A DNA stretch of 20,000 nucleotides from an uncultured virus (IMG/VR IMGVR_UViG_3300009378_000005) (IMGVR_UViG_3300009378_000005:56159-76158), one strand, 5' to 3'. Numbered from the stretch's first letter, positions 1 through 17,586 are shown. Notes: generated by a model from the letters alone, not told the origin. Made by a program: numbers and translations.

Positions 1-22
1 TTTCTGTATTTCCTCTCAGGCA
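1..22 (-). mobile_element. Start of a probable third portal intein (truncated by the window edge)
   Basis: After portal sequence LGYDEGLGAKATL the frame reads CLRGNTE, matching intein block A (C-L-x-G-[DN]-T) and resembling the CLTGDT start of intein 1. Only 7 residues are visible. Confidence 0.75.
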
Positions 23-3000
23 TAGTGTTGCCTTTGCACCCAGGCCTTCATCATAGCCTAGATATGCCTTAGGAATCTTTAACGCTGCAAATAGCTTCTT
101 CTGGATGTATTCGACGTCCTCGATAGCTGTTGCATTTGCCCCGCCGGCAAGTGTATCGATCTTGGTGCCTGACTCTCCGCCGCGAACGGGAAGATAATAA
201 TCCTCATCGACCGAATTCTTAATAAAAACCCCAGATTCTATTCTCTGATCATCAGAAAAGCATCTAGAATCGCCCGGAGTTGCAAAGTTATGGTAACCTT
301 CAATTGTTACTGCACCTACATTCTCAGTATGATCTAGAACCTCTACACATACAACTTTATGATTAGCATACGAAGCAGCTTGTTTCATCTCAGATCGTGT
401 TTTTCCAGACATCCACGTCCAGTAACAATCTTGTGAGCAAAATGTTTTATAGCTCTTTATATCTGTATCACAGCCCCGGCATGCAGAATTTGGCTTATTA
501 AATTTTCCGCCAGATAGATAGGTTGTATCAAATGATTTACCAGTATACCCGTGCGACTGCAGTATTCTCATAAAATCATATCGACTTATTCCAAAATGCC
601 TGATTATGTCATTTCTAGAAATGTTTATACTGTTACTAGCATATATTTCTATTTCTTTCCAAGGGGCACGTAATGAAGCATAATAATCTTTTACTTCTCT
701 TAGATTCTTGAACCCATTTTTTCTAAGTTGCTGTATGAATTGACCTTTTGACAATTTATCATTAAATCCATTTTCAAAATTTTCATTCAGAGACCTAAGA
801 TAAGAAGTAAAATTATTGTCATTATTTAACCAGGTTCTTACCTCATATTCTCTAGCAGACGTTGTTAGTTCATTTAATGCTTGGATTACATGGTGAATTA
901 ATTCAGAATTTGTTTTAAGAGTTAGAGCATTTACTCTTTTTTCTCTTATTTCACTATTTTGCCACATCTTTGTATAAATTTCTGGATTTAGCTTTCCAGC
1001 TTCCCAAAGATTGATCATGTTTTTTCTAGATGCTTTTCTTCCAGCGGACGACTTGTTTCTCTCTACGCAGTAATCTCCGTGAATCTTGTGATGTTCTTTC
1101 CATGTGCATGGATGCAAGTTATTAGGAGAGTTATTTGTTTTATCGAAATCTACATGATGAACAACTTTTCCTTTAATTGCTTCAAAACCAGATTCAGCTA
1201 TTATATTTGCTCGATGTGTATAAACATAATTTTGTGAATATGGATCATAGATCATTTCATATCCATCAATTACTCGCTTATCATCACCTTTCTTTGACCA
1301 GCGCTTGTATAGTGGCATCAATGCATCATTTTCGCTTAGATTCTGTGCTTCACAGTATTCTCCATTACGAAGCATGAATTTATGATCAGGAGTTACATCA
1401 AGCCATTTATTGTTATCTAAATGAACCCTTACTAATTTTGCATTTTCTTTTGTTATCCCCGCCCACATTACGCGGCCAGGAGCTAATTTCTTTCCATCGC
1501 GATCAATAGAATATACCCATTGATCTTTTTGGCCGTTACTTCTTTCTTCAATTAGATCTCCAAGAGTAATGTTTCGTCCATCTTGCAGGAATAGAAGTGT
1601 GTTCAATGAGTTACAAAGCGGGTTGTAGCGCAAATCGACGCGCCCTGTGTCCTTGTCCACAACAGACGCCTTCTTTAGTGTCGACTGCACCTGCTCCATG
1701 TATGTGGGAATATCCTCTGGTGGGACATTTCCAACATCAACGTAGAAGACTCTTCTCTCAGGAGACCTAACGATCCTGTACACGAGCATCGCATCCTCAA
1801 CAAGAATTAGCTGTCTCCAGATCCTTCTTGCAGACTCTAAAACAGACGACCCGTAAGGAAGAAATGCATCATTTCCTAATAGTCTCATGTGTGAGACCTG
1901 CCAGTTCTCCAGCGCCTGGTTTCCCTGGGTTATCCACCTGAATCTGACAGCTAGTGGGTCATCAGGATCATATCCCTCCTCCCTCTCGACCTCATTCACA
2001 GGCATCGGATATGCGTTGATAACACCGTGCTCAGGTGACACGTCATTAAAGAGAAAGAAGTCACCGTACTTGACAAGGCTCCTAACCCATGACGTCATGT
2101 TAAACTCAACATTCAAAGTATCGTAGAACAGCTCATGTAGTAGCTTCTTAATCGTCTGGTTGTCTGAGTGGATGTGTAGAACGTTTCCATGTTCATCTGC
2201 AGCAATTGACTCCTCAGAGTAGATATCCAGAGCTGAACTCACCTCCGGTGTGTACTCCATTTCGCTGTTTGAAACAAAACACATCTCCTTTTTTGTACTT
2301 GTGTCACAGACAGCAAAATTGTGTGTTTTTGTTACAGTTATGTCAAATACCGGCTCTACTATGTGTGTATTAACTACATTTATGATCTTATGATTAACAT
2401 ACAATGATTCAAAATCATCAAATGACTTATATCCTTCCCATTTTAATCTATTTAAAACTTTATACTTAGATTGGTTAAGCTTTTTAGACAAAACCGTCAG
2501 TGTATCACCAGAAACATATTCATCATAAATATTTTGAGCTGTAAAAGATCTATCTGCATTTGCATTTTGTAACGCTTTTTGATCTTGCCTGCCTTTGTTT
2601 CCTGTACCGGGGGGGTTTGTTTTATTTCTAAGGATCGTTTCTGCAACATTTTTTCTATAACCGTCAGTTAGCTTTCTTTTCGCAAGATTTTCTTTTTGAT
2701 TTTTACGAAGATCTCCTTCAAGAGACCATCTTAGTGTCATATGGCTAGATTGCTTTTCTCTTTCTTTCGGATCTTCAAATCTTTTATTGTTGATTCTTGC
2801 ATGCAATGCTAGGTGTTCCTTAGCATCCATTAGCTCAAGATTCTCTATTCTATTGTCTTCTTTTATAAAATTCTTATGATGAACATGTAATCCATCGGCC
2901 TTTTCTATTGAACGATTATTTGAATATTCTGCAACCAATACGTGCTCTGGCTTCCACCCCCTTGAAAAACCGTAAACCCAGCGATAATTTCCACCAGTTC

Positions 3001-3538
3001 TTTTAGAATCAAACTTCTTCCTGTAGAATGGCATAACAGCTGTATTGGGCTGGATCGCATCTGTTCGACAATACTCACCATTACGAAGCATAATCGGATG
3101 ATTTCCCGTACATCTAAGTGTAGTACCATTATCAAACGTTATTTCGTATATTTCATCTTCTACGGTTTGCCAGGCATTTTCTACAGGAGCTAATACAGTT
3201 GAATCTGTTTCTTTATCATATGAAAAGACACATACTGTTTCTCCATTTTCAAACTTAGATACAATATCTCGAATAGAGATTACACCTTCTTCAGTATTTG
3301 TTGCTATTAAAGTATCACCAGTCAAACAAAAATCCGAATACCTCGCCATTCTATCATACGTGCCATACGCAGACATTGCAGTGCTGTACACGTGACTCTG
3401 ATTTCTTCGAAACATGTCAAATGCTGACGAGGTGCCGCTTCCGCTTTCAAAGTCCTTCACCCTTCTCTTGATTACAGGGCCGCTTCTAAATAGAAGTGTT
3501 AGCCTTCTAAATAGACTCTGTGAATTTTTATCAGCCAT
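1..3538 (-). CDS. T4 gp20-like portal protein precursor with at least 3 inteins (3' end beyond the window; absent from the ORF track)
   Basis: Manual translation from ATG 3538 (MADKNSQSLFRRL..., upstream GAGAGGG, 14 nt after the terminase stop) finds no stop before the window edge. Exteins are 3538-3329 (70 aa), 2266-1616 (217 aa) and 214-23 (64 aa). They carry gp20-type motifs: EMEYTPEVSSALDI, EDAMLVYRIVRSPERRVFYVDVGNVPP, (S)VDEDYYLPVRGG..GTKIDTL.GG, and IEDVEYIQKKLFAALKIPKAYL. Confidence 0.95.
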   Translation of the reverse strand, partial: MADKNSQSLFRRLTLLFRSGPVIKRRVKDFESGSGTSSAFDMFRRNQSHVYSTAMSAYGTYDRMARYSDFCLTGDTLIATNTEEGVISIRDIVSKFENGETVCVFSYDKETDSTVLAPVENAWQTVEDEIYEITFDNGTTLRCTGNHPIMLRNGEYCRTDAIQPNTAVMPFYRKKFDSKRTGGNYRWVYGFSRGWKPEHVLVAEYSNNRSIEKADGLHVHHKNFIKEDNRIENLELMDAKEHLALHARINNKRFEDPKEREKQSSHMTLRWSLEGDLRKNQKENLAKRKLTDGYRKNVAETILRNKTNPPGTGNKGRQDQKALQNANADRSFTAQNIYDEYVSGDTLTVLSKKLNQSKYKVLNRLKWEGYKSFDDFESLYVNHKIINVVNTHIVEPVFDITVTKTHNFAVCDTSTKKEMCFVSNSEMEYTPEVSSALDIYSEESIAADEHGNVLHIHSDNQTIKKLLHELFYDTLNVEFNMTSWVRSLVKYGDFFLFNDVSPEHGVINAYPMPVNEVEREEGYDPDDPLAVRFRWITQGNQALENWQVSHMRLLGNDAFLPYGSSVLESARRIWRQLILVEDAMLVYRIVRSPERRVFYVDVGNVPPEDIPTYMEQVQSTLKKASVVDKDTGRVDLRYNPLCNSLNTLLFLQDGRNITLGDLIEERSNGQKDQWVYSIDRDGKKLAPGRVMWAGITKENAKLVRVHLDNNKWLDVTPDHKFMLRNGEYCEAQNLSENDALMPLYKRWSKKGDDKRVIDGYEMIYDPYSQNYVYTHRANIIAESGFEAIKGKVVHHVDFDKTNNSPNNLHPCTWKEHHKIHGDYCVERNKSSAGRKASRKNMINLWEAGKLNPEIYTKMWQNSEIREKRVNALTLKTNSELIHHVIQALNELTTSAREYEVRTWLNNDNNFTSYLRSLNENFENGFNDKLSKGQFIQQLRKNGFKNLREVKDYYASLRAPWKEIEIYASNSINISRNDIIRHFGISRYDFMRILQSHGYTGKSFDTTYLSGGKFNKPNSACRGCDTDIKSYKTFCSQDCYWTWMSGKTRSEMKQAASYANHKVVCVEVLDHTENVGAVTIEGYHNFATPGDSRCFSDDQRIESGVFIKNSVDEDYYLPVRGGESGTKIDTLAGGANATAIEDVEYIQKKLFAALKIPKAYLGYDEGLGAKATLCLRGNTE
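215..1615 (-). mobile_element. Portal intein 2 (467 aa) with HNH endonuclease, HTH-like segment and Cys4 zinc finger
   Basis: Junctions YNPL|CNSLNTLL ... VFIKN|SVDEDY. Block B VTPDHKF; block F NVGAVTIEGYHNFA. HNH motif VVHHVDFDKTNNSPNNL..CTWKEHHKIH at 1079-1165; C-x2-C-x10-C-x3-C at 425-481. Removing the insert gives RYNPL-SVDEDYYLPVR. Confidence 0.92.
2267..3328 (-). mobile_element. Portal intein 1 (354 aa) with HNH-type homing endonuclease
   Basis: Junctions YSDF|CLTGDTLI ... CFVSN|SEME. Block B CTGNHPI; block F PVFDITVTKTHNFA; +1 residue Ser. HNH motif HVHHKNFIKEDNRIENLELMDAKEHLALH at 2801-2887. Removing the insert gives YSDF-SEMEYTPE. Confidence 0.93.
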
Positions 3539-3552
3539 CTATGTCCCTCTCT

Positions 3553-5178
3553 CTACTTATACACCCATTCCCACTCTGAGAGAATGTTTAGTTTCTTATT
3601 CCACTCACCTGACAGCTTGCTCTTTTTGAAGTCATCTGGCTGCACCTTTGGATCTCTTGTTGCAGAGCTATATGGCCTCCCTTCTGTGATCGCACCGGGC
3701 ATGTCGTCGTATGTGTTTCTTGACACAGACATTGCCTTTAGCATTGCGCTGTTAAGAGACGATGCTGTCTGACTGTACTCTGAAGATGCATCATATAGCC
3801 ACATCGCGATGGCCATGCTCATAACTAGATCGTCATTGTACCCCTTCATCGCCTGTGCCTTTTGACCCTTCCACACGAACGTCTTTAGCTCGTCATAAAA
3901 TCTCGTTGAGTAGATCTTTATCTGCTTATTCCTTATTACCTCTTCGAGTTTTGCAAGAATTAGATTTCTACTCTTTCCTGAGGTTGTGAATCCTGCGATA
4001 TCACTATCCTTGCTGGGCACATAGTCCCCGACATACACTGCCTTTCTTCTCTTGTGATAAAGATTAGGATATTGCATTTCTTTTAGCTTTAAAACAGTTG
4101 CGTACCCATAGCTGTTATTTTCAGGGCATAGTAATGCCTTATTATATCTGTGGCCGAACTCGTGTAAAAGCTCTGCAAACTTATCTGGGGGTATCTTTCC
4201 CTTATATTCTGCAACACACTCACCTTCTGTAACGTCTATCACGTGAAATGTCGAATAGTCTCTTGAGTCACCTCTTGAGACGTCTGCAGATATGACATAC
4301 TGATGCTCTGATAGCGGATATCTCCATATCCACACATTCATATCATTGCCTGCCCTATCTATGGGAGGCTTGCACTCTAATCTTATCCAGTCTATCTCAC
4401 TGTCTGACAGGAATGTCTCACCCGATGATGCGAAGTCACAGAGATACTCCTGAGAGATCTGTCTCTGCGATAGGTTTTTAGTTGTCTCATTAAACCACGT
4501 CTCATCTCTCTCTGGGTGGATGTTCCATGGAAGCTTTATCGACCTGAACTCGTTTAATCCTGCCTCGGCATCAGTGTATAGCTTATAATACTGACCACCA
4601 ACGCCATTGGGTGTTGATAGTATGATGACTCGACCACCTGTAGAGATCGTGGGATATAATCCCATCCACAGCTCATCAAAATTTCTAACGAATGCTGCCT
4701 CGTCGATGATGAGAAGAGATAGCGCCTCAGATCGACCGGCATCGTCAGATGTCGGTATCGCCTTGATCGATGATCCGTGACTAAACTCTATCAGCTGCTT
4801 ATTGTTTGTGACGATCTCAGGTAAGACTAACCACTTAGGCAGACTTCTAATCATCGTCTTTACCTTGCTAATAAAATTTTGAGCAACTGATAATTTTGTT
4901 GCGATAATTAAAACATTCTTATCTTTCTGAAATAATGCCAGCCACACAGAGTAGGCTGCCACAAGAGTTGACATTCCTAGCTGTCTAGACTTAAGGATTA
5001 TTGAAAATCTCTCATCAATAAATGTTTCAACACAGTCATCCTGAAACGGGTATGTGTCAAACTGTATTAGACCGCGAACAGGATGCTGTATTTTTAAATA
5101 GTTGTTAAAGAAGTATACAGGATCTTTACCAGACTTAACGATCTCCTTTATCTGATTTGTCTTGTTTATTTTTGTCAT
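3553..5178 (-). CDS. terL: Terminase large subunit (T4 gp17-like)
   Basis: N-terminal DPVYFFNNY..I.HP and YPFQ adenine-binding motif, Walker A-like KSRQLGMST, Walker B LLIIDEAAF, motif C STPNG, and nuclease motifs ADVSRG and NDDLVMS. It lies immediately upstream of the portal. Confidence 0.95.
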   Translation of the reverse strand: MTKINKTNQIKEIVKSGKDPVYFFNNYLKIQHPVRGLIQFDTYPFQDDCVETFIDERFSIILKSRQLGMSTLVAAYSVWLALFQKDKNVLIIATKLSVAQNFISKVKTMIRSLPKWLVLPEIVTNNKQLIEFSHGSSIKAIPTSDDAGRSEALSLLIIDEAAFVRNFDELWMGLYPTISTGGRVIILSTPNGVGGQYYKLYTDAEAGLNEFRSIKLPWNIHPERDETWFNETTKNLSQRQISQEYLCDFASSGETFLSDSEIDWIRLECKPPIDRAGNDMNVWIWRYPLSEHQYVISADVSRGDSRDYSTFHVIDVTEGECVAEYKGKIPPDKFAELLHEFGHRYNKALLCPENNSYGYATVLKLKEMQYPNLYHKRRKAVYVGDYVPSKDSDIAGFTTSGKSRNLILAKLEEVIRNKQIKIYSTRFYDELKTFVWKGQKAQAMKGYNDDLVMSMAIAMWLYDASSEYSQTASSLNSAMLKAMSVSRNTYDDMPGAITEGRPYSSATRDPKVQPDDFKKSKLSGEWNKKLNILSEWEWVYK

Positions 5179-5589: not shown

Positions 5590-5844
5590 CTAGATTTGAA
5601 AACTAGGAGGAATTAGCTTTCTTTTTTTAATTTCCACATCTAGATCACGCTCTAACGGCCTCCAGCCTGCGATCCAGCGATCTCTATTTGGTTCGGCCCA
5701 CTTGATAGCACAGTCTGAACAACATTTATATCTAGTGTAATAGACATCGTCATCAGAGTTATTCATCACAAATCTGCATACAGGACAGAATAAAGGGGTT
5801 ATGTCTGACTCTCTTCCGTTAATGATGATAATTTCATCATCCAT
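5590..5844 (-). CDS. Small Cys-rich putative zinc-binding protein (about 84 aa)
   Basis: Contains CPVC...YKCCSDC..KWAE. Likely start is ATG 5844 (MDDEII...), overlapping the end of the SbcDC gene by 8 nt; the ORF track extends it to 5868. Confidence 0.75.
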   Translation of the reverse strand: MDDEIIIINGRESDITPLFCPVCRFVMNNSDDDVYYTRYKCCSDCAIKWAEPNRDRWIAGWRPLERDLDVEIKKRKLIPPSFQI

Positions 5845-8800
5845 GGAACACCATCGTATCCTTTTCATTTTTCAGTATCTCAAGAGAGTTATCAACAGCA
5901 TCTTTTATCGCATCAACGTGTGATATAACTATGATATTCTTGAACCACTTCTTAAGAGACTCAAGTAATCTGCTACAGGCCTCAATGCTTGTCTCATCAA
6001 GCGCACCGAACCCCTCATCAATAATTAGCATATTTGTCTTTGGAAGAGAGCTAACGTTGATCAGTGCAACTCTCATTGCAAGTGATGCCATCATCTTTTC
6101 CATTCCAGATGCTAGCTCAATTATCCTCTTTGAGTCACCATAGTCAATAAAGATATCCATTGCATTAGATGCAGGATCTGCAACTAACTCAACTGTAAAA
6201 CCTGTAACACCCTGGAGTATCTTTAATATCTCATCATTTATTAGGGGAAGCTGGGACATCATTATCTGGAGTGGGATTCCCTTTTTTGACATTGCCTGTA
6301 TAAACATATCATACATCTTGAGATCCCTTCGTATCTTATTAAATTCACTCTTTTCGCTCTTTAGCCTCGTTATCTCAACGTTGGCACGGGCTATCTCATT
6401 AGAACACGACAGCCTTTTTTCATCTAGGCGCTCTATCTCATCCCTTAGTGATGAAATGTTGCTTTTAAGTTTGATGCACTCTGATGATGACTCTTCGTCA
6501 ACTACCCTTATAAGCATGTCATCTAAGATTTTTAAATTTTCATCAACGATCCTTTCTGAATTTGATATCTTAGATTGCAACTCGCCCCTTTCAACTTCAA
6601 AGCTCGAAATTTTTCGAAGAATCTCGGCCTCCTTTTCAGAAATCTTATCAAACTTTTTAATCTTATCTTCTACGTTCTCTAGCTTTATTTTTTCAAATGC
6701 TTTTGTTGCCTTGGTTAAATTTTTAGACATACTAGAGACAGCAAGCTTTTGTGACTCAATGCTCTTTTTATCCTTGTGAGAGTCTTTAATGAACTTACAT
6801 GATGAAAACTCATCACCACACGGAACATCTAGTAGCTTTTTAACAGATCGTTTCTGACGACTGAGTATGTTTTTTTGAACCTCGCACTCGTGCTCAAGTG
6901 AGAGCAAAGATTTTTCAAGAGACGTCTGTGATGCCAAACTCTCTCTAAGCTTCTTGATCGGAAAGTCATTCTTTACACACTTAATTCTTAGCATTCTTTC
7001 ATTTTCTTTCTTTAGATTGTCACTTAAGACTCTTAGGTCTCTTTCATAACACTCTAGCTCATCTTTATTTTTGTTAACCTTCTCCCTGTGGTCTTTGACG
7101 TCAGACGGTGTAACAATATCAATTCCGCCTGTTGTTGCTAGCTCAATGCTTAGCCTCTCAAGGATTTCTCTTTTTGTCTTTATCGTACTCTCAGTATTCA
7201 CAAGACTTTCTTTATTTTTTTCAATGATTGATGTTTGATCATCAATTAACGAGTCCCAGTCCTCATGTTTCATCAGTCTGGCTTTTGATCGTGTATCAGA
7301 TGAGTCATTTTTTGCAAAATCATGAAGCTTATCAAATATGTCTAGATCAAGAAAGTTTGTCAATATCATTTTTCTTGCAGTTGCCTTTTCTCTAATGAAC
7401 GTATTCATCTGTCCCTGTGACGCAAGAGATGTCATTAAGAAATCTTCTGATGTTCCTATCATATTTCTAACAATCTTTTCAGTGTTTCTTCGTTGCTCAC
7501 CTGATAGGTCTGATACTATGTCGCCCGCGTCATCAATCTCATATAGGTAGAGGCTCGTTGTTGCATATGTGTCATTTTTTTTTGTTGTATTTTTGACAGT
7601 CTTTCTCTTTATTCTAAACTTTTTTCCATTCATGCTAAATTCAATTGTTGAGCTACAACTATTCTTTCTATTATTGATTACATGAATGTTTTTTATCGGA
7701 CCTCTGTCTGTAGTGTTAAATAAACCATACATCAATGATCCAATTATCGATGACTTTCCTTTTGTATTTTTTCCAAAGATTCCAGTTATTCCAGGAAGAT
7801 TATCAAAATTTACCATATTTCCAGAACCGTATGCAAACGTATTATTAAACTTAAAATTATTAATTTGCCACCTTACGTTTCTTAGCCTCTCATCCTCTAA
7901 CACTATTTGAGATAGATATTTGTCAATTAGATTATCAAATTTATCAAATGTTCCTTTTCTATGGCTAATGTTATCATAATATTCTCTAATCAGCCTTTTT
8001 TGAGCTTTTGCATCTCTTAAATTATCACCACTTACACTTTTTTTATTGTTAATTTCTGATGAATTAAATGTTGTTTCAGACTTAAACACGACCTCAGATG
8101 CAGACTTAAACGTTAACAGCTCATTTTGAACCTGTCTTGATGTTGCCTGTGTCATACTTTGGTCAGATCGTATCCTGAACCTGGAACCGTTTGGATACTT
8201 TGCAGATTCTATTAATGTCTTTTTAACGCTTCCCTTCCAGTCAATCGTTATAAATGGCTTACTGTGTGGTATCTCATGAAAAGAAACATCGAAGTCATCC
8301 TTTCCCCTGATATCCCAAAATAAAAACCCCTTGCCGACCGACTCACCGTAATTTTGCTGAATTTGTGACCCGCAATAGGCTATCTTTTTATCATCAGTTA
8401 AGAATTGAACATAGTGAATGTCAGCTAAAAGAGCATAGTCATAATCATCAAAAAAGTTTGCTGTTATCTCACCTTCAAGCTCCCAATTTGAATCAGTCTT
8501 AGAACCCTGAACACATCCGTGAAATAGTGCTATATTTACATCATCGTCAGTCGGTTTGACATCTTTCCAGCCTGGCTCATCAAAGCATGAAAATACGTTC
8601 CAGCTAAATCCAGGATGATCTACTATGGGATATGTTCCTGAATCCTTATAAAGATATATGTTTGGATCATTTAATGCTGACAGTATCGGTGATATCGCAT
8701 CCTGTCTAGACTTATTCAAAAGAAGGCCGTCATGATTTCCAAGAATCACATGGACAGGTGCGATCGACGACAGCTCCCTAAACCACCAACAGATGTTGTC

Positions 8801-8974
8801 TATCAGCTCTGGAGATATCCCTTGCGTCTTTGAATGAACAATATCACCGCCGACGTAGATGACATCTGGATTTAATTCTGTAGCAATCTTAAAAAAGGCT
8901 GCAAATGACTCTCGATACTCGTCGTGGCGTGAAAGTCCACGCCAGTGAATATCTCCTAAATGTATGACTTTCAT
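5837..8974 (-). CDS. Fused Mre11/SbcD nuclease and Rad50/SbcC SMC-type ATPase (1045 aa)
   Basis: Metallophosphoesterase motifs GDIH, GGD, GNHD, FHG and ADIH. Then Walker A GKNTKGKS, Q-loop-like ASQGQ, a long K/E-rich coiled coil with central PCGDEFSSC, signature ASGMEK, Walker B/D-loop LIIDEGFGALD, and H-loop VISH. Confidence 0.93.
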   Translation of the reverse strand: MKVIHLGDIHWRGLSRHDEYRESFAAFFKIATELNPDVIYVGGDIVHSKTQGISPELIDNICWWFRELSSIAPVHVILGNHDGLLLNKSRQDAISPILSALNDPNIYLYKDSGTYPIVDHPGFSWNVFSCFDEPGWKDVKPTDDDVNIALFHGCVQGSKTDSNWELEGEITANFFDDYDYALLADIHYVQFLTDDKKIAYCGSQIQQNYGESVGKGFLFWDIRGKDDFDVSFHEIPHSKPFITIDWKGSVKKTLIESAKYPNGSRFRIRSDQSMTQATSRQVQNELLTFKSASEVVFKSETTFNSSEINNKKSVSGDNLRDAKAQKRLIREYYDNISHRKGTFDKFDNLIDKYLSQIVLEDERLRNVRWQINNFKFNNTFAYGSGNMVNFDNLPGITGIFGKNTKGKSSIIGSLMYGLFNTTDRGPIKNIHVINNRKNSCSSTIEFSMNGKKFRIKRKTVKNTTKKNDTYATTSLYLYEIDDAGDIVSDLSGEQRRNTEKIVRNMIGTSEDFLMTSLASQGQMNTFIREKATARKMILTNFLDLDIFDKLHDFAKNDSSDTRSKARLMKHEDWDSLIDDQTSIIEKNKESLVNTESTIKTKREILERLSIELATTGGIDIVTPSDVKDHREKVNKNKDELECYERDLRVLSDNLKKENERMLRIKCVKNDFPIKKLRESLASQTSLEKSLLSLEHECEVQKNILSRQKRSVKKLLDVPCGDEFSSCKFIKDSHKDKKSIESQKLAVSSMSKNLTKATKAFEKIKLENVEDKIKKFDKISEKEAEILRKISSFEVERGELQSKISNSERIVDENLKILDDMLIRVVDEESSSECIKLKSNISSLRDEIERLDEKRLSCSNEIARANVEITRLKSEKSEFNKIRRDLKMYDMFIQAMSKKGIPLQIMMSQLPLINDEILKILQGVTGFTVELVADPASNAMDIFIDYGDSKRIIELASGMEKMMASLAMRVALINVSSLPKTNMLIIDEGFGALDETSIEACSRLLESLKKWFKNIIVISHVDAIKDAVDNSLEILKNEKDTMVFHG

Positions 8975-10605: not shown

Positions 10606-13452
10606 TTAAAAATCTTCCCTTATCTTAAAGAGCATCTCATCTGAGCGTCGCTTTTTAACAGGCTGTGCCAGCTTTACCTTCATTATAACATTTAAATTAT
10701 CATCGTGAAAGTTTATTCCGTCGATATATACAAACTTTGGATCATGATCATTTGCATCAAATGACGCTGACACAACCTGATACTGCGGGTTTGATGATGA
10801 ATTATGAAGACCTACGTCACACGGTACATTTATCGTTAATATGTGAGAGCTTTGCTCTCCCTTAAAACTAACCTTATACTGATCTTTTCCAAAGAACGGA
10901 ATGTTTGGAGATTTTATAAGAACTATCCCTTCATCATAGAAAATATTTCCTACGCTGGCCCACTTAGGGTGCGGCGTCAGGGAATCAGACCTGTAAATGC
11001 TTCCTTTTCCATTGTCACTTAATGTCATCTTGACGGCACCACTAGATCCGGTGACATCGTAGTCCTCTATCTTGAAGCTTCCAGGGAGTATTCTGTTTCC
11101 ATAGTATAGATTTGATATGTCAAATATCACTATCTCATTAGAGCTAACGTCTCTAGTTCTCTGTGCAACAGCAAGGCTTGCTATTTCAGGCGCTCCTGAT
11201 GCCTTTTCAGGTGTTGCACCGAGCAAAGTTTTTGCAAATGCATTACTGGGCACTGCCATGCCGTCATACCACAATCTTGGATTTCCACCAGACGCTATCA
11301 GTTTATCTATGTTAATTACGCTTAGATTAAGATCTCCAAGATCACCTTTAAACCGTGACATAGGCCCGCTAATAAGAGACTCAGGCAGCGTGCCACTTCT
11401 AAGGATCTCATAATCAGGAAAGAATAGACCGTTATCACACGGTAAGACAGTTAGATTTCTCTTTCTAGCTGATCCGCGGAGAACGTCTTCCCACTTTGAA
11501 TTAGAAACAGCTAGAGATCCTGTTGAGCTTGCATAAAAATACTCATTAAATGACCACTCTGTATTATCGCTGTGCGATCTGGCAACGCCGACATCGCTTC
11601 CTACGTTGTTTGTGGTTGTCGGGCCTGTTGAACCGGTTAACCTGTATAGGCGTGGGTGATTGTTTGTGATGAAATCTCTAACAAAGTTTTCAAGGTTTAA
11701 GACATGACCGCCGACTGCAAGAGACGCTGTGACGTTAAATGGAGTATTTGTCTGTGCAGTTTTATCAAAAAACGGTGTCTTAAGTATTTTTCTCGGACGA
11801 CTTTCCTTAACAAAGTATGGTGGAAGATAAAACAGCATGCTTCCTGTTGACGTCTGCCCGATAATAGATGCGCTGTGAACGATGTTATCATCAACATACT
11901 CTGTAAATATCTTTACGTCATGGATCTCAGCATTTAACGGATGGTTTAGCTCGAATCCTGAATCGCCTTTTGATCCTGTTGGGTCTCCTTTGAAGCCCAG
12001 GTCAACAACTCCCTCATTTGACGCCGCCGTCGAATTAAAAAATTTAGCTGAATTTGCCCCTGCCTCATTGTCATTTTGATCAATTACATCTGATCCGCTA
12101 TAATAGTTTCCAATAAATAAGGCACCAGCTGTTTTAAATGCTGTCGAACCAGCGCCAGGCTGTATTGATGATGAGTTTATTGTAAATGGATATGATGCAT
12201 CATCAACCCTTATGCTTCCCTCACCATTATTAAATAAATTCGTTCCCCATCTAATCGATATATGATGCCAGTGATTTCTCTGCAGTGAGTTATCTGGTGT
12301 GATAAACATCAGTCCAGACTCACTAGACTGTGGTGCAGCCATCGCTACCTGATTTTTATATTTTGAATTTGATGATGATACCTCAACGGGAATCTGTGAC
12401 GGCTCCCAGTGTTCACAGCTTTCTGCCAACTGAAGCAGTATCCTGTATCCTTTTGTCAGACCATTTTCATCACGCTCTGACCCTGACACAAGAGATATAG
12501 CATAGTTGTTTGGAAGATGCATGATGGTTCCAGGCTTGAAATCCTGATCTGATGCACCATTATGATATCTTGGATTTATATAGAAGTCAAATGTAAATGA
12601 ACCACTAAGTGTATATGGAGGAATTGTACTAAAAATCGGTACAGCGCTAGAAAATACTGCCCACCTGTACGGAACCATATTATCTGGGTTGTCTGATCCA
12701 CCTCTTGGATCTAGCTGCTTTCTAAGATACCCTGATCTATACGGTCCAAAGGTATGGGCAAATCCTGGGCTGAGAGATGTCACGGTGCTATACCCTCTCA
12801 ACGCACCTGAATTTGGATATATCAGTGCAGAATCACTAGGAACATTTGATGCTGTAAAAAAGTTTAATGAGTGATAGTTTGTATATGAGTACTCACAGGA
12901 ATCATACTTTGAACGATAAAATGGCATCAGTGAATTCTTGATCGTAGACTTGATCATTGATCCTGTAGACATCGCGGACTGCTCATATGCGTAAGCCATG
13001 TCAGAATTAGCATTTCTAACCTCATAATAGAAATCATTTTCACCATATCTTCTTATAGGGATCATCTTTCTATTTCTAGGGAGAACATTACCGCTATGAA
13101 CGTATGACATATATTCATCAATAACAGACGAAATATTGACGCTCTGTTGCTGTCTGGTCGCACTTAAAACCTGCCTTGACGCTCCGACAAGGTCATCCTC
13201 TGCTGCAAATCCTCCTAGACCCTGTGAGCTAAACGCGTTTTTGTTTTCTGCAGATATAGAAAAATCCTTGACATCCTTGATAAATGGACTAGGTCTAGCA
13301 GACACGCTAACAGACCCAGACATCTGACTGGGCACTGTGTGTGCATTATTTGAGCGATCACTTGCCTTTGACGACGAAACAAAAGTAACATCTGGATGTA
13401 AGGTTAAAGACGTATTCTCAAAGAATTCTGATAGTATCTTTATAAGAGACAC
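10606..13452 (-). CDS. Putative virion (baseplate/tail) protein with LamG/concanavalin-like domain, 948 aa
   Basis: GTG start behind GAGGT. LamG-like motifs FTFDFYINP, WHHISIRW, LFIGN and IHDVKIF. The C-terminal domain GNIFYDEG...NSSSNP...INFHDDNLNVIMKVKLAQPVKK...REDF is shared with the adjacent 423-aa protein. The ORF is certain; the function is inferred. Confidence 0.7.
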   Translation of the reverse strand: MSLIKILSEFFENTSLTLHPDVTFVSSSKASDRSNNAHTVPSQMSGSVSVSARPSPFIKDVKDFSISAENKNAFSSQGLGGFAAEDDLVGASRQVLSATRQQQSVNISSVIDEYMSYVHSGNVLPRNRKMIPIRRYGENDFYYEVRNANSDMAYAYEQSAMSTGSMIKSTIKNSLMPFYRSKYDSCEYSYTNYHSLNFFTASNVPSDSALIYPNSGALRGYSTVTSLSPGFAHTFGPYRSGYLRKQLDPRGGSDNPDNMVPYRWAVFSSAVPIFSTIPPYTLSGSFTFDFYINPRYHNGASDQDFKPGTIMHLPNNYAISLVSGSERDENGLTKGYRILLQLAESCEHWEPSQIPVEVSSSNSKYKNQVAMAAPQSSESGLMFITPDNSLQRNHWHHISIRWGTNLFNNGEGSIRVDDASYPFTINSSSIQPGAGSTAFKTAGALFIGNYYSGSDVIDQNDNEAGANSAKFFNSTAASNEGVVDLGFKGDPTGSKGDSGFELNHPLNAEIHDVKIFTEYVDDNIVHSASIIGQTSTGSMLFYLPPYFVKESRPRKILKTPFFDKTAQTNTPFNVTASLAVGGHVLNLENFVRDFITNNHPRLYRLTGSTGPTTTNNVGSDVGVARSHSDNTEWSFNEYFYASSTGSLAVSNSKWEDVLRGSARKRNLTVLPCDNGLFFPDYEILRSGTLPESLISGPMSRFKGDLGDLNLSVINIDKLIASGGNPRLWYDGMAVPSNAFAKTLLGATPEKASGAPEIASLAVAQRTRDVSSNEIVIFDISNLYYGNRILPGSFKIEDYDVTGSSGAVKMTLSDNGKGSIYRSDSLTPHPKWASVGNIFYDEGIVLIKSPNIPFFGKDQYKVSFKGEQSSHILTINVPCDVGLHNSSSNPQYQVVSASFDANDHDPKFVYIDGINFHDDNLNVIMKVKLAQPVKKRRSDEMLFKIREDF

Positions 13453-13471
13453 ATGACCTCACAATTAGAAA

Positions 13472-14743
13472 TTAAAAATCAAGTCTAACTCTAATTGTCA
13501 GATCTTTCTCATTATTTTTCTCAATTGGTCGGCTAAGCTTAGCCACAGCTAGCAAGTTATCATTGGCATCATACAGCCCAACAGATGTAAAGAATGAGAA
13601 TGACTTCTGTGTGCTCTCCTGTCCTGCCTCGATCACCTGTATGTCATTGCTAGAGTCAACATAGGTTGGATTTGCTGAGTAGTTGAACTCGTCAGCTGTA
13701 GCACGACAGAATATCAACGTAGAGTTAATGTTTGTAATATTTTGGAATGTTATTGCTGTCTGTGATCCTGAGCTGAATCTACAGCCACAGATATGATTGA
13801 CAATATCATCAATCGATGCCGACACCACTAGATCTGGAATGAACTTGGCATCAGCATTTCCGCTTAGATCTGCTGTTCCTCCCTGTGTTCCTCCTCCGAT
13901 AACCATCTTTCCTGTTCCGACAGATCCCGGATTATTCTCATTCATCGCTGAAATTGCACCAGAGACATGCTGTCCGCCAGACAAGATCTTCTTCATGTCA
14001 AATATGGCTGTTCCTTGCTGATAAAACAGCACACCGACTGACTCTGCAGTATTAGCAGCATTAACAATATTTCCAGCTGATCCTCCAAATGTAGTCTCTT
14101 GATTTGATGCTGCCCCAATGTCTGCAAATATCTTTGATCCGCTTATCGTCGTTCTGTTGAGATTCGTATACGCCGGTCCTGCAACAGATCCATTTCTAGC
14201 TGTTGTATCCTCGGTATCAATGCAAGCAGTTGCAAAGAATCTCATAGCAAAGCTCTCACGCTTTATCTGATCTCTTGTAAACAGACGCTTAAAGTTAATA
14301 AACATCGCCTCATCTATTCCGTCTTCAGATCCAGCGTTGCTAATTGGTGCTGTAAATCGTGCGCTTGCATCACCAAGAAGAAGCTTTGCATGCTGCCTGT
14401 AGATGTCAACTTTCTCTCTCATCATCACTGACTGAGATGGGAATAGCAGCTTTCCTGCTGAATCCTGCCCTGTCGCAGATCCTGTAACTGTTGCACTGCC
14501 GCTATAGAGGCCCATCGTTATATCAAATACCGGATTTGATGTTTGTAATGTGAAATCTTGATCATGCACTGTTTGGAATAGTGACGACGTTACACCTGGA
14601 CCTATTCCGCCTGTAACAAATACCTGATATTTTTTTCTTGTTGTAGACCCAGATATATCTTCCTGGATCACATCAACAAGTTGATTTAGAAATGATCTAC
14701 TTGTCTTAATGTCTGATGCTGCTATTTGTTTAAATGTAGCCAC
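13472..14743 (-). CDS. Putative virion (baseplate/tail) protein, 423 aa
   Basis: GTG start behind GGAG; Gly/Ser/Thr-rich. C-terminal GVLFYQQG...NYSANP...VGLYDANDNLLAVAKLSRPIEK...RLDF is paralogous to the 948-aa neighbour. Confidence 0.7.
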   Translation of the reverse strand: MATFKQIAASDIKTSRSFLNQLVDVIQEDISGSTTRKKYQVFVTGGIGPGVTSSLFQTVHDQDFTLQTSNPVFDITMGLYSGSATVTGSATGQDSAGKLLFPSQSVMMREKVDIYRQHAKLLLGDASARFTAPISNAGSEDGIDEAMFINFKRLFTRDQIKRESFAMRFFATACIDTEDTTARNGSVAGPAYTNLNRTTISGSKIFADIGAASNQETTFGGSAGNIVNAANTAESVGVLFYQQGTAIFDMKKILSGGQHVSGAISAMNENNPGSVGTGKMVIGGGTQGGTADLSGNADAKFIPDLVVSASIDDIVNHICGCRFSSGSQTAITFQNITNINSTLIFCRATADEFNYSANPTYVDSSNDIQVIEAGQESTQKSFSFFTSVGLYDANDNLLAVAKLSRPIEKNNEKDLTIRVRLDF

Positions 14744-14758
14744 TTAAAGAACTCCAAC

Positions 14759-15460
14759 CTACGAAATCTGAACTTTGAAGCTTGTAAATGCACCTGAATT
14801 CATGCCAGATATCTCTACAACCTTTTCTACAACTGAGCCGCCTTTCTGCTTATATGTCGTGTGAACTGAATTTGACACAGATTTTGCCTGGACTGTCATG
14901 GTTAAGGCGCCTAAGTTTGATGTGTTTGTTATGGGATCAGCAGGTATAATGTATGTTGCAATGTTATCAGCGTTAACAGAGTCAGGACCTCCTACGCCGG
15001 GAATTGACAAAAATAGATTATCTATTGTCACCTTAAACGAAGCATCTGTTAGCTCTGGTGCCAAGACACCTCCACCTGACACAGCTTGCTCAACAGTCAC
15101 CTTCTTTGATATGTCACCTGCAGTTGTTGACCTTGTGAGTGAAAGCGTGCTATCTGACACACCTGTGAGCGTTAAGTTAGGAAGCTTTGTCAAATTTGGA
15201 TTGCTAATGCTTACCAGCCTGTACTTTTGTCCAAGATTTCCCCTAGTTAACGCTTCAAGAACTGGTGTGTTCTTTTCAATCTTTTCCTTGCCGACGGTTC
15301 TACCAAACTTTTTAATAATTGAATAGTCTATCTCATCATCCCCTAGTGCAAATTTAACAATAGAAAATGATCCGTCATTTCTCGCTAGAAATTGACGACC
15401 GACATCTGTTAAAACAGCGTCGAGAATAATGTTGTTAGTCGAATGATCAAGATACCCGAT
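14759..15460 (-). CDS. Putative virion structural protein (233 aa) with probable non-canonical ATC start
   Basis: The frame of track ORF 14759-15193 stays open to a TGA at 15476-15478, adding GYLDHSTNNIILDAVLTDVGRQFLARNDGSFSIVKFALGDDEIDY.... This extension has no in-frame ATG, GTG or TTG. AAAAAGAGGTG lies 4 nt before ATC-GGG-TAT (ATC at 15460-15458). Confidence 0.8.
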   Translation of the reverse strand: MGYLDHSTNNIILDAVLTDVGRQFLARNDGSFSIVKFALGDDEIDYSIIKKFGRTVGKEKIEKNTPVLEALTRGNLGQKYRLVSISNPNLTKLPNLTLTGVSDSTLSLTRSTTAGDISKKVTVEQAVSGGGVLAPELTDASFKVTIDNLFLSIPGVGGPDSVNADNIATYIIPADPITNTSNLGALTMTVQAKSVSNSVHTTYKQKGGSVVEKVVEISGMNSGAFTSFKVQIS

Positions 15461-15479
15461 GATACACCTCTTTTTTCAA

Positions 15480-15550
15480 CAGGCCGTGCCTGAACTTCTA
15501 TCAATAATTATACAAATCTTAATTATTCACAGTAAATAGAATTATTTATC
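15480..15550 (-). promoter_or_regulatory. Intergenic control region of the ATC-start gene
   Basis: On the minus strand, in order: GATAAATA (15550-15543), TTTACT-N18-TATAAT (15536-15507), hairpin CAGGC-ACG-GCCTG (15492-15480), then the Shine-Dalgarno. Confidence 0.4.
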
Positions 15551-15555
15551 TATCT

Positions 15556-17550
15556 TCAGCTACCCTGACCTGAATTTCCTAACATTGCAAGCGTTGTAAC
15601 GTTTGCTGAAGACTCTGCAACTGACTGCGGTTCTGTTCTAACATTACTTAGATATATGTCAACTGTTTTTGCACTTTGAAGATCTGTATTAAGAATCTGC
15701 AGCTTGTATGCAGGATAAGACGGTTCTGACTCATCAAGTCCACGAATTAAAGATAAATCATTGCTCTTCGTATCCCAGCCTCCTGACTGCGTCTGTAACA
15801 CCTCTCTCTTATATACCTTGAGAAATTCGGGATCAGAATATATTTTTATTCTACTGTGGCCTGAATCTTTCATTGTATCGACAAACACATCACCATCTAG
15901 ATATAAATTTGGATAAGATTTAGGTGCACCAGATCGTGATATCATCTTGACATTTAGCTTATTTTTTAATTTATCAAATGACACCTCAAGCTGCATAGAA
16001 TAATTTGATGATAGACCTCTTGCATCAATTGAAGCCAGCGTATAGACGTACTTTGAGCTTTTTGTAAAATATGCATCTCTAAATGACTTCTTAGGATGCT
16101 TCATTCTCTGTGATATCGATGCCGGTGCTCTCTCAAGAGGCTGTGTTATTGATGTCGAATTGTCAAAATTATACTCTCTAATCAGGGTAAATGGGTGTCT
16201 TATATTTCCTCGTCTAAATATTTGAAATCTCTTAATGTCTCTCTGTGGGTTTATTGGAAACTCCCAGAATATTATCAGGCCCCCTTTCTTAAAATCATAC
16301 TTAAATCTCACATCAACTGGTGGTGGCGGTGGCATGTCTTCCTTGCACATCACAGTTGTGCTTATTCCAGATGACGCTATTAGTGTGCTGGCCATAACAA
16401 CCTGATCAGCTGTCGACGTAGATATTCTTCTTGCTTCAAATCTAGACAATGATATCGCATGAACCTTATACAGATATTCTCCTCCATACATGACCTCAGT
16501 ATCGATAACTGATGTAATATCTGCTGAATCAACAGGTATTGATCTCATTTTTGACAGGCTTCCGTCACCCTTTATCTCAAACTTTTGAATTAAAAATCCG
16601 ATTAAAACAGACCCTTCGTTGGCATTTGTCCCTCCTTGAGCGGATGCATTGACTAGCTCCTGATCAATCGGAATAACAACAGGTTCATAATCTGTCTCTG
16701 ACACCTGTGTGGGATTTGCACTATTAATTGTCGCATTTTGTACAAACTCAGCAGACTGTAGTATTCCACTTAGCTCATCTGCATATACGTTTATATTATC
16801 GATGATTGAACCGCTAACTATTGTTCCAAACACCAGATTGTTAGCATTGAAGTCAAGCTGAAGACTTCTAACATGTAAGAGAGGATCAGATACAACAGAT
16901 TCCTTTATATCAGTCTTAGAATATGTTACACCTTTTGACTGTAGATTTCCAAGAACAGATCGAACAGAAAAAGGATCAACAGACGTTACACTGTTTGGCA
17001 TCTGAGCTGTCGGAGATGAAAAGCCTGAAAGCGCCGCTGACGAGCTAAGAGATGTATAAAATTTTCTATCAACACCTGTATCCATTAGATTTACACTGCT
17101 AAATGACGTATTTGATATCGCATCTTCGAACATTATATTACTAACATTCTCAGACACCTTGACATTCTCAAATATCGTATTCATCGCTGCAGATGACAGA
17201 TTTCCTCCTTGTTCACTAGCAAGTGTGTTGAACGAGGGAGGAGAAAATGTGATCCTAACAAATCGAGGAACCCTATCTGTGCCGGCCAAAAACTCTAGCT
17301 CATCTCTTGTTGTATCGTTAATTGATATGTTTATCTGTTTAGAGCTTTGATTTGTTTTTTCATCAGGCATAAAATAAACGTAATTAAACTCTGCATTTAG
17401 CTGTGACACCTCTGGTATGTCGATCTGTGTTACCGGCTTTGAAGGATATGACGAGGGAAGCGTGCTATTGCTAATTGAATCGACACCTTCAACACCATCT
17501 GTTGGAGTTATACCCTTGTAGGTATTGTTATAAAATTCCTGTGTTGTCAT
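15556..17550 (-). CDS. Putative structural protein with fibronectin type III-like segments, 664 aa
   Basis: Long ORF with FN3-like patterns DTEVMYGGEYLYKVHAI and PPPP.DV...LIIFW...FQIFRR...YVYTLASIDARGLSSNYS, located within the structural cluster. Confidence 0.6.
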   Translation of the reverse strand: MTTQEFYNNTYKGITPTDGVEGVDSISNSTLPSSYPSKPVTQIDIPEVSQLNAEFNYVYFMPDEKTNQSSKQINISINDTTRDELEFLAGTDRVPRFVRITFSPPSFNTLASEQGGNLSSAAMNTIFENVKVSENVSNIMFEDAISNTSFSSVNLMDTGVDRKFYTSLSSSAALSGFSSPTAQMPNSVTSVDPFSVRSVLGNLQSKGVTYSKTDIKESVVSDPLLHVRSLQLDFNANNLVFGTIVSGSIIDNINVYADELSGILQSAEFVQNATINSANPTQVSETDYEPVVIPIDQELVNASAQGGTNANEGSVLIGFLIQKFEIKGDGSLSKMRSIPVDSADITSVIDTEVMYGGEYLYKVHAISLSRFEARRISTSTADQVVMASTLIASSGISTTVMCKEDMPPPPPVDVRFKYDFKKGGLIIFWEFPINPQRDIKRFQIFRRGNIRHPFTLIREYNFDNSTSITQPLERAPASISQRMKHPKKSFRDAYFTKSSKYVYTLASIDARGLSSNYSMQLEVSFDKLKNKLNVKMISRSGAPKSYPNLYLDGDVFVDTMKDSGHSRIKIYSDPEFLKVYKREVLQTQSGGWDTKSNDLSLIRGLDESEPSYPAYKLQILNTDLQSAKTVDIYLSNVRTEPQSVAESSANVTTLAMLGNSGQGS

Positions 17551-17586
17551 ATCTTTTGTCCGTGATATTCTGTCTATATCGTTTAA

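Follow-up and report, generated by a model that had tools for sequence, protein, structure and literature searches.

A T4 gp20-type portal gene carrying three inteins in an uncultured marine phage

Inteins are known from the portal genes of several groups of tailed phages. Six are reported for mycobacteriophages of cluster C1 (Kelley et al. 2016, PMC5050341), those of actinobacteriophage portals are placed in five separate groups (10.1101/2025.01.02.630785; InterPro IPR009279), and 14 inteins distributed over five bacterial phyla are recorded in SPP1 Gp6-like prophage portals (COG2369; Novikova et al. 2016, PMC4760082). The large terminase subunit (TerL) of crAss-like phages, gut phages using alternative genetic codes, is described with two Hint-type inteins (PMC7886860). 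Full-text literature searches, which were not exhaustive, returned no report of inteins in a gp20-type portal or of a phage gene with three inteins. We describe here a gene that combines the two: a T4 gp20-type portal gene carrying three inteins (I1, I2 and I3), found at the left end of IMGVR_UViG_3300009378_000005:56159-76158. This 20,000-nucleotide stretch, the window in what follows, corresponds to G000:C1:56159-76158 in a virus record of 76,158 bases, a metagenomic contig of an uncultured marine tailed phage. Its three inteins are very probably self-splicing, selfish mobile elements.

A sequence-only reading of the window had proposed a portal open reading frame (ORF) of at least 1,179 codons, in which at least three inteins, about 70% of the visible precursor, interrupt 351 amino acids (aa) of portal at YSDF/S, YNPL/S and KATL/ (a slash marks each break). 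This anatomy was borne out and can now be completed. The ORF runs on the minus strand from position 3538 down to 2 and is open at its 3′ end; its 1,179 codons encode 70+217+64 = 351 aa of portal and 828 intein residues (70.2%). In the left-extended locus L002 (L002 8574-13538 = window -1426 to 3538) it continues for 1,426 bases past the left edge and is complete at 1,654 codons. The complete precursor holds exactly three inteins, which make up 973 of its 1,654 residues (58.8%), and four exteins of 70+217+64+330 = 681 aa, the predicted length of the spliced portal. The break points are YSDF/C...N/SEME, YNPL/C...N/SVDE and KATL/C...VHN/SQED. The reading frame is preserved across all six intein/extein junctions, and the 973 intein codons are all open. 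Only the first seven codons of I3 (CLRGNTE, window 1..22) lie within the window. Coordinates are collected in Table 1.

Table 1. Parts of the portal precursor gene and two neighbouring head genes, in window positions; negative positions lie beyond the left edge
Feature	Position	Strand	Evidence
Portal precursor gene, visible codons 1-1179 of 1,654	1..3538, continues to -1426	minus	Portal_T4 E 3.5e-52
Extein 1, residues 1-70, ends YSDF	3329..3538	minus	Gap-free alignment to N-termini of nine intein-free homologues; no Pfam match of its own
Intein I1, C71-N424, 354 aa; block B TGNH, end VSN then Ser+1	2267..3328	minus	PF14890 53.2 bits; TIGR01445, TIGR01443
HNH domain within I1, precursor residues 199-243	2810..2944	minus	PF13392 HNH_3 34.1 bits (cut-off 24.8)
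Extein 2, residues 425-641, SEME...YNPL, wing and part of clip	1616..2266	minus	Portal_T4 positions 10-251, E 3.8e-34
Intein I2, C642-N1108, 467 aa; block B TPDH, end IKN then Ser+1	215..1615	minus	PF14890 54.1 bits; TIGR01445; AlphaFold model
HNH domain within I2, precursor residues 773-817	1088..1222	minus	PF13392 HNH_3 24.9 bits (cut-off 24.8), borderline
Extein 3, residues 1109-1172, SVDE...KATL, clip to tunnel loop	23..214	minus	Portal_T4 positions 253-308, E 4.4e-19
Intein I3, C1173-N1324, 152-aa mini-intein; block B TDNH, end VHN then Ser+1	22 to -433 (L002 9567-10022)	minus	PF14890 59.7 bits
Terminase large subunit, 541 aa, directly upstream of portal	3553..5178	minus	Terminase_6N 67.5 bits; phrog_2
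Prohead protease, 556 aa, with intein	-3954 to -2284 (L002 6046-7716)	minus	Peptidase_S77 75.3 bits

Profile searches identify both components of the gene. Besides Portal_T4, Pfam finds two stretches each of Intein_splicing (E 4.1e-29) and HNH_3 (E 1.2e-13) on the visible ORF, and PHROGs return portal protein together with several HNH endonuclease families. The Hint-domain matches expected of the inserts were obtained when each was scanned separately: all three pass the curated cut-off of PF14890 (Intein_splicing, 35.8 bits) with the scores in Table 1. The NCBIfam model of the intein N-terminal region, TIGR01445 (cut-off 24.5 bits), scores 51.1, 40.1 and 54.6 bits on I1, I2 and I3, and the C-terminal model, TIGR01443 (cut-off 15.6), scores 18.0 on I1 and 20.3 on I3. 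An HNH_3 domain lies between the splicing blocks in I1 and I2, and none is present in I3.

The joined exteins align contiguously to gp20 portals, as had been anticipated. Portal_T4 (PF07230, 433 positions) is matched in order and nearly without loss by exteins 2 and 3 (Table 1) and extein 4 (positions 323-428). The precursor was aligned with nine homologues that lack inteins and measure 663-699 aa. Clean gaps of 354, 467 and 152 residues fall exactly at YSDF-SEME, YNPL-SVDE and KATL-SQED, and the four residues flanking each junction on both sides are invariant in all ten sequences. The spliced length is in line with that of the intein-free homologues, the best of which (~680 aa) are 88-89% identical over extein 2. 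A profile of this alignment matches T4 gp20 (PDB 3JA7) with E 1.8e-31.

For I2, the one insert covered by a fold test, an AlphaFold model was built from 12 aligned sequences and reached a mean predicted local distance difference test (pLDDT) score of 80.3. A Foldseek search of the PDB with this model gave 42 matches at E <= 0.001, and the first 50 ranked entries are inteins or Hint-type domains. Solved inteins head the list, among them 8ubs_A (E 3.5e-6, target template modelling [TM] score 0.60) and 4kl5_A (target TM 0.61); for mini-inteins the target TM is about 0.6. By this model I2 has a Hint fold.

All three inserts have Cys1, a T-x-x-H block B, a terminal Asn and Ser+1 (N424/S425, N1108/S1109 and N1324/S1325), the signature of class-1-type inteins, and most likely all three splice. 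The portal would be translated as a 1,654-aa precursor from which the inteins would excise themselves and ligate their flanks; the 681-aa product would read ...YSDF-SEME..., ...YNPL-SVDE... and ...KATL-SQED.... With three complete inteins in the precursor, three splicing events per subunit would be required, as had been supposed. From their HNH domains, I1 and I2 carry putative homing nucleases; in I2 numbering, H153, H154, N166, H175 and H179 are invariant in 12 site-mates.

The gene comes from a metagenomic contig, and at each junction the GC content shifts between 46% and 34.5%, so the long ORF might be suspected to be chimeric, made of a portal gene joined to unrelated reads that bear inteins, an outcome that the sequence-only reading had named as a refutation. 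Independent data speak against it. Two other virus records, L009 and L010, are 100.000% (7,927 nt) and 99.987% (7,928 nt) identical over the region, all junctions included. The stretch is present in six public runs, which belong to two studies. In runs X1 and X2 the region is covered by one contig each, of 15,176 and 13,595 bases, though these are possibly the record's own source. In the second study (P2), contigs of run X5 bridge 214/215, 1615/1616 and 2266/2267 without other letters, that is, three of the five in-window junctions; among the X5 pieces listed none bridges 22/23 or 3328/3329. No intein-less joined form of the portal was found in these public runs. The word depth of the genotype is ~16 in two runs and ~4-5 in the second study. 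Because the same gene occurs in other records and second-study contigs run across three junctions, with the frame kept through all six, we conclude that the gene is not a chimera; an assembly artefact is exceedingly improbable.

The window portal belongs to a large family in which inteins are frequent. A search with extein 2 yielded at least 7,999 homologues of up to 908 aa at E <= 1e-10 and, from 1,389 candidates, 819 homologues of 909-2,895 aa. Inserts of at least 90 aa were mapped in the best-scoring 120 of the 819 long homologues (including the window's P0123), which are not a random sample, with a consensus of 103 intein-free proteins as reference; hmmsearch domain tables and a global alignment that penalises long gaps only lightly were used. 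A precomputed PF14890 match is present in all but two (P0180 and P0199) of these 120. One insert was found in 93 proteins, two in 21, three in five (including the window's own) and four in one (P0124). By consensus site the counts are 15 at site 64, two at 67, 12 at 70, 71 at 74/75, three at 86, 32 at 287, 15 at 345/346 and three at 351. A single insert at site 20, with a Met start and an HA end, is probably no intein. Judged from the 120 mapped proteins, the portal family is a true intein hot spot, with about eight sites and one to four inserts per protein; the hot spot suspected at this gene is thus wider than first noted.

Occupancy is sporadic among close relatives. The survey of empty and occupied alleles that had been suggested was made over 80 related virus-contig loci, 78-100% identical in extein 2. 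Portal genes without insert are found at 65 of them complete and at 10 more cut at an end, three carry inserts and two could not be resolved. The occupied loci are L009 and L010, with the same three inteins, and L016 (3184-10143, encoding the 2,319-aa P0124), with four, at sites 70, 86, 287 and 351, all above the PF14890 cut-off. Cultured phages are only distantly related, the nearest over extein 2 being Microcystis phage Mel-JY01 (46%), Flavobacterium phage immuto (41%) and Rhodothermus phage RM378 (35%). A tblastn search of 50,697 phage records with I1 and I2 hit nine and five records, none under an annotated portal. In one uncultured 484-kb phage (LR756508.1 146051-148303) an I1/I2-like intein segment lies ~1.3 kb past the end of a portal match, and portal inteins may occur in huge phages too.

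Each intein has its best relatives at its own site. The nearest to I1 is the insert of P0184 (80% identical) and the nearest to I2 that of P0163 (42-46%); I3 has relatives in P0124 (80% over 152 aa) and P0178 (55%). P0184 is 67% identical to the window portal over the first 460 extein residues, yet 80% in I1. P0124 is 93% identical over the same residues and only 32% identical in the inteins at sites 70 and 287, which on this comparison are of other lineages than those of the window at the same sites. By these figures, intein and host-gene similarity are uncoupled in both directions. The base composition of the inteins also differs from that of their gene: GC is 34.5% in the inteins (24-29% at third codon positions, GC3), 46.1% in the exteins (GC3 42-55%) and 39.2% in the whole window. 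The site-351 intein of P0124, 383 aa long, is of the same lineage as I3 with 231 extra residues and a sub-threshold HNH_3 match (22.9 bits), so I3 looks like a mini-intein left after nuclease loss.

Taken together, the same-site relatives, the uncoupled similarity, the GC contrast and the nuclease loss of I3 point to the usual life cycle of homing inteins and not to a conserved regulatory device. In mixed infections the HNH nucleases of I1 and I2 would presumably cut intein-free portal alleles, and repair would copy the intein in; I3, its nuclease lost, would persist only through continued splicing. Homing is the probable route of spread. Two closer relationships were considered and dropped. 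A long BLAST pair suggested that I1 was copied recently from the intein at site 86 of P0124, but their global identity is just 34%. I1 and I2 share 31% identity over 195 aa; they are related, though not more closely than either is to inteins at other sites, which does not fit recent paralogues.

The insertion sites were placed on the portal structure by alignment to the T4 gp20 protein from NC_000866, with domain limits (wing 70-254, clip 279-358, tunnel loop 374-398, then helix alpha-8) as given in PMC4493910. Site a (YSDF/SEME) lies near T4 Y79/R80 at the wing start, in a weakly aligned stretch; site b (YNPL/SVDE) is between M328 and S329 in the clip domain; and site c (KATL/SQED) is between I396 and T397, where the tunnel loop ends, just before helix alpha-8. 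An unspliced subunit could hardly fit into the ring, which is true of any intein in any folded core.

These positions invite the proposal, made in the sequence-only reading, that splicing is a post-translational gate on capsid assembly. Conditional splicing (by redox state, temperature or DNA) would then time or dose the mature portal and hence the start of head assembly. Because a subunit with an unspliced insert in the wing start, clip or tunnel loop cannot join the dodecamer, the slowest of the three splicing reactions would set the timing and amount of portal, one reaction would respond to a condition of the infected cell, head initiation would be tied to that condition, and the intein of the prohead protease would be part of the same delay; this chain of events seems very doubtful to us. 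The trigger could be redox, through Cys1 and nearby cysteines, or temperature or DNA. Sites b and c do fall in parts needed intact for the ring, other inteins are reported to splice conditionally (PMC6195587, PMC7360933), and the prohead protease two genes downstream likewise bears an intein, but any intein in any essential protein delays maturation, and delay alone is no sign of regulation. The sporadic occupancy among close relatives, the different inteins at the same sites of a portal with 93% core identity (P0124), the homing nucleases in two of the inteins and the differing composition of the intein DNA all argue against a conserved device. No conserved sensor feature was found, and nothing in the sequence points to conditional splicing. 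We regard a regulatory gate as very unlikely, and present evidence gives no support to a new mode of capsid-assembly control.

Some observations sit less well with three active mobile inteins. The penultimate His, which assists the C-terminal splicing step (G:6; PMC5222942), is found only in I3 (VHN), with Ser in its place in I1 (VSN) and Lys in I2 (IKN). I2 is the least canonical of the three inserts: its block F position (F:4 in our own reading of the nomenclature) is Ala, where eight site-mates with Cys1 have Cys and I1 and I3 have Asp; TIGR01443 has no match in I2; and the HNH match of I2 is barely at its cut-off. The 76,158-base record is just 23% complete by CheckV, and the genome may have another portal gene, free of inteins, outside it. 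The DNA at the three sites lies only at the 75th-85th conservation percentile of 30-nt windows, counted over the 39 of ~65 complete intein-free loci that passed a start-motif filter. The idea that the inteins sit in the most conserved DNA is borne out only moderately, and at the DNA level it is a weak argument.

The splicing-motif departures of I1 and I2, together with the low completeness of the record, could also be read as decay, in which at least one intein, most likely I2, would no longer splice and the phage would be defective or reliant on another portal gene. We consider this improbable. Not one of the 973 intein codons is closed, and Cys1, T-x-x-H, the last Asn and Ser+1 are retained in all three inteins. 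Inteins without a penultimate His can splice, and we read its lack in I1 and I2 as a variant, not as ground for exclusion as an intein. The unusual VSN end of I1 recurs in its 80%-identical relative in P0184, and Lys, Arg or Leu ahead of the last Asn is common among site-287 inserts. The genotype recurs, 100% or 99.99% identical, in two records and at the depths given above, which fits a replicating phage, and no Portal_T4 match besides the precursor gene is found in the 76 kb.

Site 287, where I2 resides, holds inserts of several kinds. Among 33 inserts there (in homologues P0124-P0241 and at L016 6604-7794), 20 start with Pro in place of a nucleophile and have an A-P-E-H block B and a Cys in block F (VYCMTV), eight combine Cys1 with the block F Cys, three combine Cys1 with Asn or Gly at that position, and I2 and its twin combine Cys1 with Ala. 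The features of the first 20 are the signature of class 3 inteins, in which splicing is initiated from the block F cysteine (PMC5222942). This one homing site seems to hold variants of differing splicing chemistry. Pro at intein position 1 is unusual.

The genes around the portal form a head module on the same strand. In minus-strand order the window contains unknown proteins of 799, 664, 144, 423 and 948 aa, followed by a RuvC-like resolvase and a primase. Next come a fused SbcD-SbcC-like nuclease (1,045 aa) and two small ORFs, and then the terminase large subunit and the portal. Beyond the window the portal is followed by a 286-aa ORF, the prohead protease, six ORFs of 87-472 aa matching no family, and a gp23-like capsid protein. 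TerL thus lies upstream of the portal, with Peptidase_S77 and Gp23 (258.7 bits) downstream. TerL, a neighbour that had been called intein-free, has no match in a PF14890 scan. The prohead protease carries an intein, and the head module therefore carries at least four. The protease intein reads ...ALGE/CVDEETQ...FWTGN/CDHPE..., and its Intein_splicing and LAGLIDADG_3 matches are weak, at 24.7 and 23.8 bits.

The gp23-like major capsid protein (P0244, L002 706-2637, minus strand, 643 aa) has its best Gp23 match at residues 369-633 and a long Gly/Ser/Ala-rich segment within its N-terminal 368 residues. Two Gp23 profile stretches in this gene suggested a further intein; the candidate was rejected, the extra segment being Gly/Ser/Ala-rich and without an intein match.

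Other genes of the record are noted briefly. In the 1,045-aa ORF (window 5837-8974, minus strand), residues 1-184 are an SbcD-like phosphoesterase (Metallophos) and residues 278-1038 an SbcC/Rad50-like ATPase (phrog_77), fused in a single protein; T4 has these two as separate genes 47 and 46. The five ORFs of 948, 423, 144, 664 and 799 aa (window 10606-19986, minus strand) gave no match to Pfam or PHROG families within the thresholds applied. Elsewhere in the record, at L008 1-3246 (G000:C1:12891-16136, minus strand), a RecA-like gene lies in pieces with a gp32-like gene upstream. A 252-aa ORF matches the RecA profile at 7-202 (148 bits) and a 96-aa ORF is the RecA C-terminus; a 139-aa ORF ends ...HINHN/TTPGG with a weak intein C-terminal match and is followed by a 306-aa ORF for a Vsr/DUF559-type endonuclease, after which comes the 96-aa ORF. 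From its sequence this locus looks like a fractured gene that contains a split intein together with a free-standing nuclease.

The main value of the portal gene is as an entry to a large, little-described intein hot spot in marine phage portals. A non-enzymatic structural protein, which starts head assembly and through which DNA passes, tolerates three large inserts. The sequence-only reading had called the portal an unusual intein target; its non-enzymatic nature stands, while the rarity was overstated, portal inteins being already in print (PMC5050341, PMC4760082, 10.1101/2025.01.02.630785). The ocean-phage portal family is a busy landing ground, in which portals that are nearly identical carry inteins of different lineages at one and the same site. 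It offers a natural data set for intein invasion, replacement, nuclease loss and intein loss, and protein engineering could draw on it for new HNH-type inteins and mini-inteins with Ser+1 junctions. Caution is also in order, as such genes will be given a wrong size or overlooked by gene callers and by phage markers based on the portal.

Compared with the known systems, the window gene shares with the myco- and actinobacteriophage portals the sporadic presence of inteins, read as mobile, in a tailed-phage portal gene (PMC5050341, 10.1101/2025.01.02.630785). Those portals belong to other families and other hosts, and several inteins per gene or a gp20-type portal are not described in the portions of these reports at hand. 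The SPP1 Gp6-like portals are likewise recurrent intein hosts, but they are of a different portal family and reside in prophages, and the relevant portion of that report mentions no multi-intein alleles (PMC4760082). Like the portal described here, the TerL gene of crAss-like phages, as presented in PMC7886860, is an essential late gene laid out as in-frame extein pieces between inteins in a genome rich in selfish elements; it encodes a terminase and not a portal, and has two inteins against three here. T4 gp20 itself is intein-free, only ~24% identical, and without the long acidic C-terminal tail of ~200 aa of the marine proteins. The joined exteins nevertheless belong to the gp20 family (PF07230, PDB 3JA7), and the order TerL, portal, prohead protease and gp23-like capsid protein, with other genes between the last three, is T4-like.

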